Source of the DNA: a bacterium
GTDB lineage: Bacteria > Patescibacteriota > Minisyncoccia > Phycocordibacterales > Zambryskibacteraceae
Assembly: GCA_030649135.1 (NCBI GenBank)
Contig: JAUSGI010000003.1
Coordinates: 1-10,953 of the forward strand
DNA length: 10,953 nucleotides
Direction of reading: 5' to 3'
Made by a program: the position numbers and the translations under genes. The notes beneath the pieces were generated by a model. The model was not told the DNA's origin, searched no databases, and saw only the letters and a program-made list of their open reading frames with translations. This document shows, in pieces, positions 2,858 through 10,953 of the stretch (positions are counted from its first letter, which is position 1; each line of letters begins with the position of its first letter).

Positions 2858-4207
2858 CTAGCGCCCGGCAATAGAAGCAAAAGTCTTAAGCGTCTGAAGA
2901 GCTATCTTTAGATCCAATAGGAAAGAACGGTTTTTGATGTAGTAGAGGTCGTAGGAAAGCTTGTTTTTAGTTTTATCCACATCAGTGCCATGGTGCGGGT
3001 GCTCGCCATATATCTGCGCCCAACCGGAGAGACCGGGTTTAATCAGGTGACGAACATTGTAGTAGGAAATCTCGTCAGTATAGCGCTTGACTGCTTCCGG
3101 GAATTCCGGCCGTGGCCCGATGAGCGAAATGTCGCCCCGAAGCACATTCCACAATTGTGGGAATTCATCTAGCCGAGTTTTCCTAAGAAAGTTGCCCACT
3201 CGAGTTACTTTATTCACCACATCTGTAGTCTGCCAATCACCGTTGTCGTTGAAAAGCATGGTCCGAAATTTCAAGATACGGATAATGTGGTTATTTCGCC
3301 CAACACGGTCCTGGACGGTAAAAATGGGCCCACTGCCTTCAAGTTTCATAGCCACAAAAATAAAAGGGCATGCGAGTATAGGAACCACAAGCAGAGGGAT
3401 GGACAGCAAGATATCCATTAAACGCTTCAGAATATCGTACCCACCGCGGGACGCAGTGGAAATATTCTCCAGAAACCAATCGTACCGAAGGAGTGAGAGC
3501 GGTACTCTGTCAAAAATATCCTCGTAAATCTTGTGCATATCGATAAAACTGATTTTGGAGAAAATCAGATTATAGAGATGGGGTAAGACGGGCTCGACAT
3601 TTTTATTGGCGAGGTCAATGGCTATAACGGAGACATCCTCGGCATAAACATGTGAGATAATCTCGTCCCAGAAACCCTTCTCATCGGCGCGATTCAGATC
3701 GACTGAAGAGACAAATTTGATATTGTAAATTGAATTGTTGTTGACTTCTTCATAGAGCTCTTTCATCTCATCTCCGGAGCCAATCAGGATGGCATTGTTC
3801 GGATGACCGTGGCCAATGATGAAGTAGCCATACATTCTCCAAGAAAGAATGAGCGCGAAAGATACTACCAGATATATGAATAGGATAGTCTTAGGCGTAA
3901 TACCGAAGAATGGTATGAAGTAAAAAAACATCACCGCCAAAGCTGAACTAGCCAGTTGAGTATTGGTGATAATAGTCGGCAGTTTCGACTTTAGAATAAC
4001 CGTGTGTTTCTCATATAAGCCGGCAATGTAGAAAACGAGAATCCATAGCACAAAAAGTATGCTAAAAGGCAGAAAGTGCGTTAGGAATAAGTCATTAGAT
4101 GGCACTTCCAAGCCCCGTATTAAAAGAGACAGCCAAAGCGCTACCACAAAAGAGCAAATGTCTCCCAAAAGCAGAATAAGGGCCTCTTTCCTATTGAGCA
4201 AACTCAT
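2858..4207 (-). CDS. Polyprenyl-phosphate hexose-1-phosphate transferase (bacterial sugar transferase, WbaP/CpsE-like initiating phosphoglycosyltransferase)
   Basis: 449 aa. N-terminal TM helices, then a C-terminal domain with DEFPQLWNVLRGDISLIGPRPE, the hallmark of the bacterial sugar transferase family. A TATAAT hexamer lies 8 nt upstream of the ATG on the minus strand, so a leaderless or short-leader transcript is possible. Confidence 0.85.
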   Translation of the reverse strand: MSLLNRKEALILLLGDICSFVVALWLSLLIRGLEVPSNDLFLTHFLPFSILFVLWILVFYIAGLYEKHTVILKSKLPTIITNTQLASSALAVMFFYFIPFFGITPKTILFIYLVVSFALILSWRMYGYFIIGHGHPNNAILIGSGDEMKELYEEVNNNSIYNIKFVSSVDLNRADEKGFWDEIISHVYAEDVSVIAIDLANKNVEPVLPHLYNLIFSKISFIDMHKIYEDIFDRVPLSLLRYDWFLENISTASRGGYDILKRLMDILLSIPLLVVPILACPFIFVAMKLEGSGPIFTVQDRVGRNNHIIRILKFRTMLFNDNGDWQTTDVVNKVTRVGNFLRKTRLDEFPQLWNVLRGDISLIGPRPEFPEAVKRYTDEISYYNVRHLIKPGLSGWAQIYGEHPHHGTDVDKTKNKLSYDLYYIKNRSFLLDLKIALQTLKTFASIAGR

Positions 4208-4275
4208 AGACGTGCATTATACAACAATAAACCTAAAATAGGAAGTGCACCCACACCCCCTAATATACCCTCAAC

Positions 4276-4311
4276 TACGCTACAATATGCCTATAGGTAG
4301 TGAATAACGTA
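4276..4311 (+). repeat. 36-bp direct repeat, left copy. It contains the -10-like TACAAT (4281-4286) and the palindromic core CCTATAGG, and ends on the A of the ATG at 4311.
   Basis: TACGCTACAATATGCCTATAGGTAGTGAATAACGTA aligned against 4881-4916 gives 30/36 identities, with a perfect 16-nt core TATGCCTATAGGTAGT. Confidence 0.8.
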
Positions 4312-4880
4312 TGGGTAAGTTAGAGAAAAAAGACAGAAAAAGAGGCGGGAAAGAGAATTTGCAGAGAATCATTTTGAGTTCAGTAGCCGCCGTCGGTGCT
4401 TTAAGTATTGGTCTTATTGCGCCAAATGTTATCAATGCCCTGAACAAACTTGGTATTTTGCCCAAACTTCGCCAGCAAGAGTACACCTCTTCTTCCGCTT
4501 CAAAACTTGTTAGACGAGGACTATTAAAGTTTAAGGATGGTTATTATCGACTAACAATAGATGGAGAAAAGGTACTGAGAAGATGGGAGTTATCAGATTA
4601 TAAATTAAAAAAACCAAAAAAGTGGGACAGAAAATGGAGAATGATCATTTTTGACATTCCGGAAAAGAAAAAGGGAATACGGAAACAAGTAACGGCCCTT
4701 TCCAACCAAGCGGGGTTCTATCGATTACAAGATAGTGTTTGGGTGTATCCATATGATTGTGAAGATATTATTGGACTTCTGAAAACAGATTTTGGTATTG
4801 GAAAAGATTTACTTTATGTCATCGCTAGTGAAATAGAAAACGATCGCCATCTTCGTTATAAATTTGGCCTCAACTCTTGA
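4311..4880 (+). CDS. PaaX-family-like transcriptional regulator: N-terminal winged-helix plus a C-terminal PaaX-C/Cas2-like domain
   Basis: 189 aa. The C-terminal segment KKWDRKWRMIIFDIPEKKKGIRKQVTALSNQAGFYRLQDSVWVYP matches the PaaX pattern as I recall it (WDGKWLLLL...GFG.L..S.W..P). The N-terminal part resembles a wHTH (..LVRRGLLKFKDGYYRLTIDGEKVL). This rests on recalled motifs, not a database search. Confidence 0.55.
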   Translation: MGKLEKKDRKRGGKENLQRIILSSVAAVGALSIGLIAPNVINALNKLGILPKLRQQEYTSSSASKLVRRGLLKFKDGYYRLTIDGEKVLRRWELSDYKLKKPKKWDRKWRMIIFDIPEKKKGIRKQVTALSNQAGFYRLQDSVWVYPYDCEDIIGLLKTDFGIGKDLLYVIASEIENDRHLRYKFGLNS

Positions 4881-4916
4881 TACGTCATATTATGCCTATA
4901 GGTAGTAGATAACGTA
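4881..4916 (+). repeat. 36-bp direct repeat, right copy. It contains the -10-like TATTAT (4888-4893) and starts immediately after the TGA stop of the preceding gene.
   Basis: TACGTCATATTATGCCTATAGGTAGTAGATAACGTA. See the left copy. No gene follows on the plus strand. Confidence 0.8.
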
Positions 4917-4970
4917 GTTTGTAAATATACGTCCAAGGAGACGGGATATTTGAAATAAAATGAAGATCGC

Positions 4971-4996
4971 CCAGCGCGCATGCGCGCTGGGCGGAG
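4971..4996 (-). terminator. Rho-independent terminator (26-nt perfect palindrome CGCCCAGCGCGCATGCGCGCTGGGCG) for the minus-strand receiver gene. It may be bidirectional.
   Basis: Perfect GC-rich inverted repeat. On the minus strand it is followed by ATCTTCATTTTATTTCAAAT (T-rich), 38 nt downstream of the receiver stop codon. Confidence 0.6.
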
Positions 4997-5034: not shown

Positions 5035-5400
5035 CTACAACTCCTTGAGGATCTTGGAAACGAGCATCGAGATCATGTGTTTCTCTGCCTCGTGGCTACA
5101 ACCGATCTTCATCATTTGCTTCCGGAAGATGGAGCTTCCGGAAGCAGCCACGATGGGGCCCGGGAAAGTCTGGCGCATCTTCTGAATGAGCGATGCAGAA
5201 TTCAGCTTCTCACCGCCCACGCTACCATCTATGATCACGAGGGTGAGGTCGGCATTGGCTTCGAAAAGCCGTTCACCATCTTCTACAGAAGAGGCCACAA
5301 TGACTTCGGCACCTTCCCTCTTGAGATGGCGAGTCCATATGCGCTGCCATTCTTCCTCGTCCTCGACGATCAGAACTTTCGGTGAACTCGCTGTTGTCAT
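5035..5400 (-). CDS. Stand-alone response-regulator receiver domain protein (CheY-like)
   Basis: 121 aa. KVLIVEDEEE acidic pocket, the phospho-acceptor Asp context LTLVIIDG, and a conserved Lys region. GGAG Shine-Dalgarno 9 nt upstream of the ATG. No output domain and no histidine kinase in the window. Confidence 0.8.
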   Translation of the reverse strand: MTTASSPKVLIVEDEEEWQRIWTRHLKREGAEVIVASSVEDGERLFEANADLTLVIIDGSVGGEKLNSASLIQKMRQTFPGPIVAASGSSIFRKQMMKIGCSHEAEKHMISMLVSKILKEL

Positions 5401-9223: not shown

Positions 9224-9334
9224 CTCTGTGCTAGCGCCTAGCTACTTTTGCCTTGCGACTATCATCGCCTCAACTGGGCTTAACTTCCGTGTTCGGAATG
9301 AGAACGGGTGGGACCCCGGCGACGAAGCACCAGA
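9224..9334 (-). rRNA. rrf: 5S rRNA (boundaries approximate, ±5 nt)
   Basis: The minus strand reads GGTCCCACCCGTTCTCATTCCGAACACGGAAGTTAAGCCCAGTTGAGGCGATGATAGT, matching the 5S loop B/helix III and loop C consensus (CCGAACACGGAAGTTAAGC, GATGGTAGT). The terminal helix pairs GUGCU with AGCAC. Confidence 0.8.
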
Positions 9335-9695: not shown

Positions 9696-10491
9696 CGCGT
9701 CATTCCCCTATCACTAGGAGCGCAGACTATATCTTCACCCAAACATTTTAAAATGTTTTAGGGTGTTGGCGTATTACTTGCATATGCTGTCGTTTTCAAT
9801 GAAACGATTCCTCATTATGCAAGTCTGCCGGCTTTCACCGACAAGTCGTTACGGGGTCAAACCCAACATCTCTAACAATTCGTTTTTAGACCGCTTTTTC
9901 TTAGTAACATAATTTTCTTCTTGAATTACTAAGATAAGATCAGCTAAAACGAGTAGTTGCTTATTTATGAGTCGTCTCCGTTTGGCTAGAGAAAGAATTT
10001 CACAGGCTTTACGTAAAGCAATAGCCTGAAGTTTCTTGAAACGAATGTATGGCATAAGTGCTTTGAGTATATCTCGCACTTGTACGAATCCATTTATTCT
10101 TAATTCGGTCATTCCATCATTTCTTTTGGAAAGGTACCCGATACCAAGAATTTCTCTAACCCACATTAACGGCTTTTCATGTCGAGTGTCTTGATAGAAG
10201 CAAATGGTCGGCATAAAACGCCTTTTAAGCGCGCCGTCCTTACGCTTCTTGATTTGAAGCATTAAGCTTCCGTCTCCATCAAGAAACCCAGCAATATAAG
10301 CAAGATGATTGGATCGACTTCCCACGGTATTGTCTTGTGTTTTTCTGGTCCTCAAGTAAGTTTATACTTACCATTGTACCACTGCCTACGGACTAGGCCG
10401 GCAATAGTTATCAACAGACCAAACGTCCACAAGATTTCACCGTTATTAGCCACTTTGTCATCACAAATTACTTCGTGAAGTAGCAAAATTT
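9696..10491 (-). mobile_element. Group I self-splicing intron (about 796 nt) in the 23S rRNA, carrying a LAGLIDADG homing endonuclease ORF
   Basis: Exon continuity: ...GAGGGGATTTGACTCTAGU | intron | ACGAGAGGACC... restores the universal SRL sequence. The 5' exon ends in U and the intron ends in G (GACGCG). The P7 3' strand/S element AAGAUAUAGUCUGC (revcomp of 9722-9736) pairs with GCAGACU about 60 nt upstream. There is a P8-like hairpin CGUUU..AAACG, and a P9 hairpin UCCUA-GUGA-UAGGG with a GNRA tetraloop just before the 3' splice site. Confidence 0.75.
9849..10355 (-). CDS. LAGLIDADG homing endonuclease, single-motif and I-CreI-like, encoded in the intron. TTG start with an in-frame TAA 3 codons upstream.
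   Basis: 168 aa. LAYIAGFLDGDGSL motif at residues 18-31. Basic C-terminal region. Located in a peripheral loop upstream of P7. Confidence 0.8.
   Translation of the reverse strand: MRTRKTQDNTVGSRSNHLAYIAGFLDGDGSLMLQIKKRKDGALKRRFMPTICFYQDTRHEKPLMWVREILGIGYLSKRNDGMTELRINGFVQVRDILKALMPYIRFKKLQAIALRKACEILSLAKRRRLINKQLLVLADLILVIQEENYVTKKKRSKNELLEMLGLTP

Positions 10492-10953
<462 letters not shown>

Follow-up and report, generated by a model that had tools for sequence, protein, structure and literature searches.

The window analyzed here, a 10,953-nt stretch of contig JAUSGI010000003.1 (assembly GCA_030649135.1) from a bacterium of the Zambryskibacteraceae, contains a plus-strand gene (4311–4880) for a 189-aa PaaX-like protein that is bracketed by two directly oriented 36-bp repeats. 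The left repeat (TACGCTACAATATGCCTATAGGTAGTGAATAACGTA, 4276–4311, plus strand) ends on the A of the ATG at 4311, and the right repeat (TACGTCATATTATGCCTATAGGTAGTAGATAACGTA, 4881–4916, same orientation) begins directly after the TGA at 4878–4880. In agreement with a preliminary description of this DNA, from which the coordinates, sequences, and abutment to ATG and TGA were all reproduced, the two copies were found to share 30 of 36 positions (83%), including a perfect 16-nt core. Also when three mismatches are allowed, the window has exactly two occurrences of this core 16-mer, TATGCCTATAGGTAGT, with 0.05 matches expected, and two matches were reached in none of 200 shuffles; the repeat pair was confirmed to be real and far beyond chance. 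The preliminary description had pointed out the palindrome within the core but did not mention that each repeat forms an imperfect palindrome over its full length, in which TACG..AT and AT..CGTA arms are arranged around CCTATAGG. As argued below, we propose the left repeat to be a promoter-overlapping operator and the right one an auxiliary operator of the encoded protein.

The protein appears to be composed of a basic arm at the N-terminus followed by a winged helix and a Cas2-like domain. The Cas2-like domain (residues 103–175, 4617–4835) matched PaaX_M (PF20803) with an E value of 1.9e-16 and 60.4 bits against a cut-off of 24, and the winged-helix region (residues 52–92, 4464–4586) gave a weak match to HTH_45 (residues 64–92, E = 0.016), while the Pfam model for the N-terminal part of PaaX did not match the protein. 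The match to TIGR02277 was partial, with residues 62–157 aligned on model positions 40–137, and scored 29.8 bits against the equivalog cut-off of 264.55; PaaX_C did not match at all, the protein ending 14 residues past the Cas2-like domain. No paa genes were found near the window gene, nor in those related loci whose called genes were listed. Based on this low score, the missing PaaX_C, and the lack of paa genes nearby, the protein is not a PaaX equivalog. The top Foldseek match was E. coli PaaX (8a39, E = 1.6e-4), but with a root-mean-square deviation of 11.5 and a model of low confidence in the winged-helix region; it was followed by Cas2/VapD chains that matched the C-terminal domain (template modeling score of 0.5–0.65 on the target) and by weak Lrp/AsnC matches at ranks 10, 42, and 46. 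Cas2 models stayed below their cut-offs (TIGR01573, 21.6 vs. 24.5; PF09827, E = 0.062), and a sequence search of the PDB returned 3kfw (E = 0.64) as its sole match. The AlphaFold2 monomer model was confident in the Cas2-like domain only, with a predicted local distance difference test score (pLDDT) of 80–85. Asp115 is invariant and located at the end of strand β1, presumably the position at which Cas2 carries its catalytic Asp. Sequence searches retrieved 1528 close homologs and 2771 clusters at 50% identity.

A scan limited to one genome per species yielded 443 relatives, of which 80 loci were kept (these and further loci mentioned below are referred to as L001 and so on). The first relatives to be retrieved already showed the bracketing pair, whether their synteny was the same (SecF–SecD–sugar transferase / gene / GT4–FtsW–VWA) or their context unrelated, and single genomes, such as CAZGIA01, MHVH01, and JAUSDP01, held at least 4–6 paralogs. 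Nearly every gene copy was accompanied by a 36-nt element whose last base is the A of the ATG and by a second element located 0–52 nt past the stop codon. In a scan of 424 kb that combined a position-weight matrix with symmetry, 70 left and 76 right sites were identified in 81 loci; the best matrix score in shuffled sequence was 19, compared with a median of 39 for the true sites, and a stricter pattern scan returned no site from shuffled sequence. The preliminary description had allowed for an outcome in which relatives carry a single copy with identical flanks, as after a neutral local duplication; instead, the pair was kept at approximately 70–76 of the 81 loci, which come from Parcubacteria/Zambryskibacteria. 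Furthermore, each paralog was found to have its own site sequence, matched from left to right, with a left/right identity of 83% within loci versus 59% between loci, and 41 of 67 left copies had their best match in the right copy of the same locus.

The identity between left and right copies was 0.8–1.0 at symmetric positions and 0.54–0.67 at positions 8–12 and 26–29, and the similarity of the flanks outside the element was not significant (4.25 vs. 3.91 of 12 positions), L012 and L069 being the exceptions. In the ortholog group of the window gene, the left and right copies carry separate conserved signatures, indicating that they are old and separately maintained sites. These results do not agree with the idea, raised from the window, that the repeats are the scar of a tandem duplication of a promoter–gene unit, as the copies form separately conserved lineages that resemble each other at symmetric positions with no similarity reaching into the flanks. 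A related explanation, in which local duplication or gene conversion left the repeats behind as a neutral remnant and the second copy is functionless, can draw on a short CCTCAAC match ahead of both window copies and on the 3′ half of the window left copy, which matches the right-copy type of the closest relative at every position, so that some local conversion may have happened. It is nonetheless already contradicted by conservation: the right copy is kept at approximately 76 of 81 loci at protein divergence down to about 50% identity, its palindromic symmetry is maintained by compensatory change, it co-changes with residue 58 of the protein, and the flank similarity is not significant. We consider this explanation to be highly implausible.

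With regard to the signatures themselves, the left sites of the orthologs end with ...TATAGTCAGATAATAACGTA and the right sites with ...TATAGGTAGnAAnTAACGTA (L127, L001, L091, and L110). The window left site has a 3′ half of the right type, identical to the right site of L127, and a weakened −10 hexamer (TACAAT). This right-type 3′ half may reflect a local conversion, which, if it occurred, would explain part of the high left/right identity in the window. Several loci showed further irregularities. In L069, a 144-bp direct duplication (2289–2432 and 3096–3239) holds the right site together with the 3′ end of a convergent gene for a CCA-adding enzyme, and as a result, an identical third site precedes the left one by about 150 nt. 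Family palindromes retained away from the intact family gene were observed in L059, with the decayed remains of another paralog behind the site (148–350; MYYRCIGKLEKK...), and in L032 (846–881).

All elements have the same length and a common form, TAC[G/A]...C16...G21...[C/T]GTA, in which position i mirrors position 37−i. Positions 1–8 and 29–36 as well as 13–16 and 21–24 are complementary, positions 9–12 and 25–28 are not, and T1, A2, C3, C16, G21, G34, T35, and A36 are nearly invariant. Both the outer arms (ACGTTAT, ACATCTAT, ACACCAC, ACGATAT, and ACATTAT) and the cores (GCCTATAGGC, CACGATCGTG, TGCGGTCGCA, AGCTATAGCT, and others) differ among paralogs. At the 12 symmetric pairs, 85% of the cells were Watson–Crick pairs, compared with 66% in column shuffles and 16–25% with slid partners, and the number of cells changed on both sides was 124–130, compared with 46–51 in the shuffles, a value reached by none of 500 shuffles. 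Judged from these sequence patterns, the palindromic symmetry is under selection and kept by compensatory changes.

Such symmetry could in principle be that of a nucleic acid hairpin. In that case the repeats would form RNA hairpins, one at either end of the mRNA, exerting translational control by hiding the AUG or acting as a stabilizer or terminator, and the Cas2-like (RRM-like) domain might bind them. The elements can indeed fold, the right copies of relatives reaching −15.6 kcal/mol with z values of −3.9 to −4.9; the left element ends on the start codon, and the Cas2 and VapD relatives of the protein are RNases. The expected strand asymmetry was, however, absent. When both strands of 134 elements were folded, plus- and minus-strand energies were equal (Wilcoxon p = 0.9 and 0.45), and G:T cells (69–73 overall) were matched in kind by A:C cells (42–57), with 18 vs. 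18 in the right-copy stems; the symmetry totals of left and right copies were also nearly equal. The lack of strand preference fits a site for a protein on double-stranded DNA rather than an RNA or single-stranded hairpin, and the RNA-hairpin candidate was rejected on the basis of the folding and the wobble counts. It is further disfavored by the window's own elements, which fold no better than shuffles (z of −0.5 to −1.1), by the −10 hexamer inside the left arm, from which the RNA would begin in the middle of the element, by right copies that are not followed by a T-run, by stand-alone sites that occur in both orientations and as abutting pairs, and by a scan against Rfam that gave no match in the region. 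We accord the RNA explanation only a slight probability.

The paralog-specific sequences allowed the sites to be compared with the proteins encoded beside them. Residue 58, which adjoins the N-terminal side of the nearly invariant helix SSSASKL (in the window, the codon of Y58 at 4482–4484 lies just ahead of this recognition helix), was Y or F in all 48 of 48 cases with G4:C33 and I, V, or S in all 18 of 18 cases with A4:T33. The joint switch of residue and base pair occurred at least four times independently in the protein tree, as in L040 vs. L041 and in L063/L072 vs. L058. In a phylogeny-aware test for changes on the same branch, in which every protein column was set against every DNA position (8178 tests), the pair of Y58 and bp 4 ranked at the top (p = 2.4e-6), for left and right copies alike. 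Residue 125, which together with the invariant R124 is located on helix α1 of the Cas2-like domain (codons 4680–4685; a variable position, K125 in the window), tracks bp 14/23, with the combinations D–C in 25 cases, E–A in 8, N–T in 7, R–T in 6, and K–G in 5. From this covariation, we infer that the outer arms (positions 1–8 and 29–36) would be read by the winged helix and that the Cas2-like domain probably uses R124 and residue 125 to read the inner core (positions 13–24). At the level of sequence comparison, the sites are demonstrably real, conserved, symmetric, matched within each locus, and co-varying with the protein.

As for the promoter, the −10-like hexamers reported for both copies are indeed present in the window (TACAAT at 4281–4286, plus strand, element positions 6–11 inside the left arm; TATTAT at 4888–4893), but a −10 hexamer is conserved across the family in the left copies only. 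A perfect TATAAT at element positions 6–11 was found in 40 of 67 left copies versus 8 of 67 right copies, a rarity indicating that the right copy is not a conserved promoter, and the TATTAT of the window right copy is not conserved in the orthologs. Transcription would then start near the center of the left palindrome (approximately 4293–4295), giving a leader of about 17 nt. The site has the form TACGTTAT-N20-ATAACGTA with the −10 hexamer in the left arm, which corresponds to the arrangement of PaaX-type operators, that is, half-sites about 27–33 bp apart over the regulator's own promoter. The preliminary description had proposed a duplicated operator for autoregulation whose second copy drives a short noncoding or antisense RNA. 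The operator part of this proposal was supported, both copies co-varying with residue 58 and the left −10 being conserved, but the RNA part was not, in view of the right copy's lack of a conserved −10 and of strand bias and the occurrence of downstream genes on both strands. Nor is the 26-nt palindrome toward which the right copy had been thought to be directed (4968–4993) a plus-strand terminator for transcripts starting at the right copy: it is terminator-like for the minus strand, on which its T-run lies, and is located just downstream of a minus-strand gene for a receiver-only response regulator (5035–5400).

The best explanation overall, which we hold to be probable, is that both repeats are cognate double-stranded DNA operators of the encoded short PaaX-like regulator, through which it would repress its own gene. 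A symmetric dimer would probably be the form in which the protein binds the palindrome. The −10 hexamer and the ATG of the gene, as well as its likely transcription start, are all overlapped by the left site, whose occupancy would repress the gene in the manner of PaaX at the Px promoter. The right site, immediately behind the stop codon, would be a second, promoterless site for the same protein, which most likely cooperates with the left site across about 600 bp by forming a loop around the gene, or blocks transcription at the 3′ boundary.

Several observations weigh against this autorepression model. All support for it is comparative: that the protein binds and represses, and what the right copy does, is deduced from the conserved sequences. 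In the window, both sites have mismatches in their arms, the −10 hexamer of the left copy is TACAAT instead of the perfect TATAAT, and the site scan found no third site anywhere in the window. Across the family loci, neither a conserved −35 element nor a conserved Shine–Dalgarno sequence was found, leaving the −10 hexamer as the basis of the promoter assignment. The co-change of residue 125 with bp 14 (p = 7e-5) ranked third and did not pass Bonferroni correction. The AlphaFold2 monomer was poor in its N-terminal half, with pLDDT below 50 for residues 1–29 and 55–60, which is insufficient for assigning residues 58 and 125 to a common DNA-binding face. Finally, the left–right spacing of 593–657 bp showed no helical phasing and hence gives no support for looping.

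The last point also bears on the role of the right copy, which may be a roadblock or insulator, or the operator of a neighboring promoter, rather than a looping partner, with its identity as an operator unchanged. Bound there, the protein would keep transcription from running out of its gene or from entering it in antisense, or would influence the next gene. Besides the unphased spacing, this possibility, which we rate as real but somewhat unlikely, is in line with the window gene not being followed by a plus-strand intrinsic terminator, with the ancestral synteny, in which the GT4 gene starts about 60–100 nt downstream of the right copy and the divergent Bac_transf promoter is located about 70 nt from the left one, and with the stand-alone sites, which are intergenic and lie beside terminators and promoters. 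Against it, the downstream neighbors lie on either strand (33 plus, 24 minus) and at variable distances, and a single role directed at the neighbor cannot explain a nearly universal right copy. As between loop and roadblock or insulator, the data favor neither.

Comparison of syntenic genomes provided information on the origin of the unit. In the closest relative, L127, whose sugar transferase is 91% identical, the gene, both sites, and the receiver gene are arranged as in the window. In the syntenic loci L128–L130 (72–80%), the GT4 and sugar-transferase genes stand back-to-back with start codons 43–98 nt apart, and both the family gene and the palindrome are absent (empty sites at L128 3403–3500, L129 3455–3500, and L130 3458–3500). 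The unit gained or lost consequently comprises the gene with both its sites, plus approximately 50–70 nt beyond the left site and approximately 60 nt beyond the right one. The proposal that the repeats mark the boundaries of a small inserted cassette was thus upheld in that the gene and both repeats are present or absent as a unit, but not in the position of the boundaries, since the breakpoints lie about 50–70 nt outside the repeats and no solo repeat remains. Breakpoints outside the repeats and the lack of a solo repeat argue against recombination between the repeats.

A stronger form of the cassette idea holds that the unit is or was mobile and that the palindromes are recombination or transposition ends for the encoded protein, acting as a Cas2-like nuclease or recombinase. 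It would account for the many copies per genome in unrelated contexts, for ends that are cognate to the encoded protein and in direct orientation at 54 of 67 loci, for the presence/absence polymorphism within conserved synteny, for the invariant Asp115 at the end of strand β1, and for the local duplications around the sites in L069 and L012. On the other hand, the paralogs are old and diverged (50–77% identity) and form orthologous clades across genomes, near-identical copies were not seen, the left and right copies evolve as separate orthologous lineages, and the empty sites have neither a solo palindrome nor a target duplication, with breakpoints 50–70 nt outside the repeats. Moreover, no relatives were found in 2.9 million viral contigs, and stand-alone sites occur at the promoters of housekeeping genes. 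None of the marks of a mobile cassette that were looked for (a transposase or integrase, identical copies, and a solo end or target duplication) was present, the open reading frame matching PaaX_M only. We judge mobility of this kind to be improbable.

The stand-alone sites were revealed by a metagenome scan with the pattern of the window-type site, TACG-N9-GCCTATAGG-N-AG-N5-AACGTA. Of the matches in the 37 loci obtained, about 15 flank a family gene, and at least 22 stand alone, the retrieved locus containing no member of the family. The assumption, first drawn from ±2.5-kb flanks, that the sites are private to the regulator gene was overturned by these stand-alone sites. Their neighbors, named from translations of open reading frames and not by family search, placed them upstream of grpE–dnaK, of topA, and of a hisS-like gene; in the syntenic relatives of the window, pairs of sites of other paralog types, detected by the general site scan, were located upstream of the 16S rRNA gene or just after SecF. 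With sites standing alone at other genes, the proteins look like ordinary transcription factors with small regulons.

Many of the stand-alone sites abut a site of a different paralog type with a period of 36 nt and the junction CGTA|TAC. Such intergenic heterotypic pairs were located in L093 (3350–3421), L124 (3876–3947), L091 (1565–1636), L111 (997–1068), L104 (7747–7818), and L119 (1294–1365), their settings being upstream of grpE–dnaK, upstream of the 16S rRNA gene or after SecF, and by CYTH/NUDIX-like and hisS-like genes. The pairs suggest combinatorial control by different paralogs. Separately, a small conserved hairpin, GTCCAAAGCCGA(G/A)CTTAGGAC, was observed after the stand-alone window-type site in several unrelated contigs (L090, L096, L121, L097, L106, and L094).

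Among known systems, PaaX of E. coli and Pseudomonas has the operator TGATTC-N27-GAATCA and represses its own promoter by steric hindrance, RNA polymerase being occluded (PMC9493321). The likeness to the present system lies in a presumably homologous winged helix, in the homologous central Cas2-like PaaX_M domain, and in the long operator with widely spaced inverted repeats (about 39 bp vs. 36–38 bp here). In contrast to PaaX, the protein described here has no PaaX_C effector/dimerization domain (189 aa vs. about 305–316 aa) and no paa genes nearby, belongs to a multi-copy family with paralog-specific sites, and is associated with a second, inner palindrome that seems to be read by the Cas2-like domain and with a second operator directly after the stop codon. 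A literature search retrieved no paper combining "PaaX" and "Cas2-like", and the papers found on the Candidate Phyla Radiation (CPR) did not mention PaaX.

The placement of a repressor gene between its own operators resembles that of phage lambda CI with OR and OL and of coliphage 186 CI with FL and FR, whose repressor genes lie between their own operator sets; there, the promoter-proximal operator serves autoregulation and the distal one strengthens repression through protein-mediated DNA looping. In lambda, each operator groups three 17-bp sites, the two groups being separated by 2.4 kb, and lytic promoters are under their control. Unlike these systems, the present one involves another fold, a single 36-bp site per side, a spacing of about 600 bp, no sign of a phage, and looping that is only presumed. 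Proteins of the Lrp/AsnC family (feast/famine regulatory proteins) are likewise small, with an N-terminal winged helix and a βαββαβ oligomerization domain, and are usually autoregulated, often through several sites. The present protein shares with them its small winged-helix architecture, the βαββαβ domain, and the presumed autoregulation; it differs in carrying, instead of a RAM domain, a Cas2-like domain for which covariation suggests a contact with DNA that RAM domains are not known to make.

Cas2 and VapD share with the protein the ferredoxin-like fold of the C-terminal domain and the invariant Asp at the end of strand β1, but the domain scores below the Cas2 cut-offs and is fused to a winged helix, and there is neither cas1 nor a CRISPR array in the window. 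The ends of IS200/IS605 elements and integron attC sites are similar in combining a single small gene with directly oriented imperfect palindromes specific to each copy. Theirs, however, are strand-specific single-stranded hairpins acted upon by HUH or tyrosine enzymes, whereas here neither a strand bias nor an enzyme of these types was found, copies of recent origin were absent, and empty loci lacked a solo site.

An autoregulated repressor with palindromic operators is in itself of a kind already known. Unusual here are the operator pair bracketing the gene, a code specific to each paralog, a Cas2-like domain that likely reads DNA, and pairs of heterotypic sites at the promoters of housekeeping genes. 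We tentatively put forward a wider scheme in which the left site, gene, and right site would form a self-contained, duplicable module that radiated in Parcubacteria into mutually orthogonal transcription factors. In this scheme, residue 58 would read bp 4 and residue 125 bp 14, the Cas2-like domain would read DNA, combinations of paralogs bound to abutting heterotypic sites would control the rRNA, grpE–dnaK, and topA promoters of these reduced genomes, and the operator pair of each gene would be bridged by protein into a loop; taken as a whole, it is speculative. Gene regulation has hardly been explored in the CPR/Patescibacteria, most of which are uncultivated. For the short PaaX-like family, with its 2771 clusters, the present results offer predicted 36-bp sites, a candidate recognition code, and candidate targets, namely the family's own genes and the genes downstream of the stand-alone sites (grpE–dnaK, topA, and 16S rRNA). 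They also suggest that a Cas2-fold domain can read DNA sequence and provide a natural collection of putative orthogonal repressor–operator pairs, and the predictions can be checked in vitro with synthetic DNA and recombinant protein, free of culture.

With respect to the wider setting, the closest homologs of the window proteins are annotated as Zambryskibacteria/Parcubacteria, and the neighbors of the regulator gene encode SecDF, a sugar transferase, the receiver protein, GT4, FtsW, and a VWA protein. The receiver gene (minus strand) and the adjoining minus-strand hairpin are a later insertion between the right copy and the GT4 gene; they are common only to the window and its closest relative, L127, and absent from L001, L006, L091, and others. 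Scans of the window against Rfam and for tRNA genes gave no match at the locus of the repeats and the regulator. A second terminator-like hairpin with its T-run on the minus strand (4239–4262) lies between the left site and the promoter region of the sugar-transferase gene. All rRNA genes of the window are on the minus strand and unlinked, with about 8.8 kb of protein-coding genes between 23S–5S and 16S: the start of the 16S rRNA gene at 1–411, the 5S gene at 9229–9334, and the 3′ part of the 23S gene, with a putative group I intron and a LAGLIDADG open reading frame, at 9704–10355 and 10495–10953. The intron segment (9704–10355, minus strand) is group I intron-like with an Rfam score of 30 bits, below the gathering score, and the open reading frame for the LAGLIDADG endonuclease lies within it at 9849–10355.

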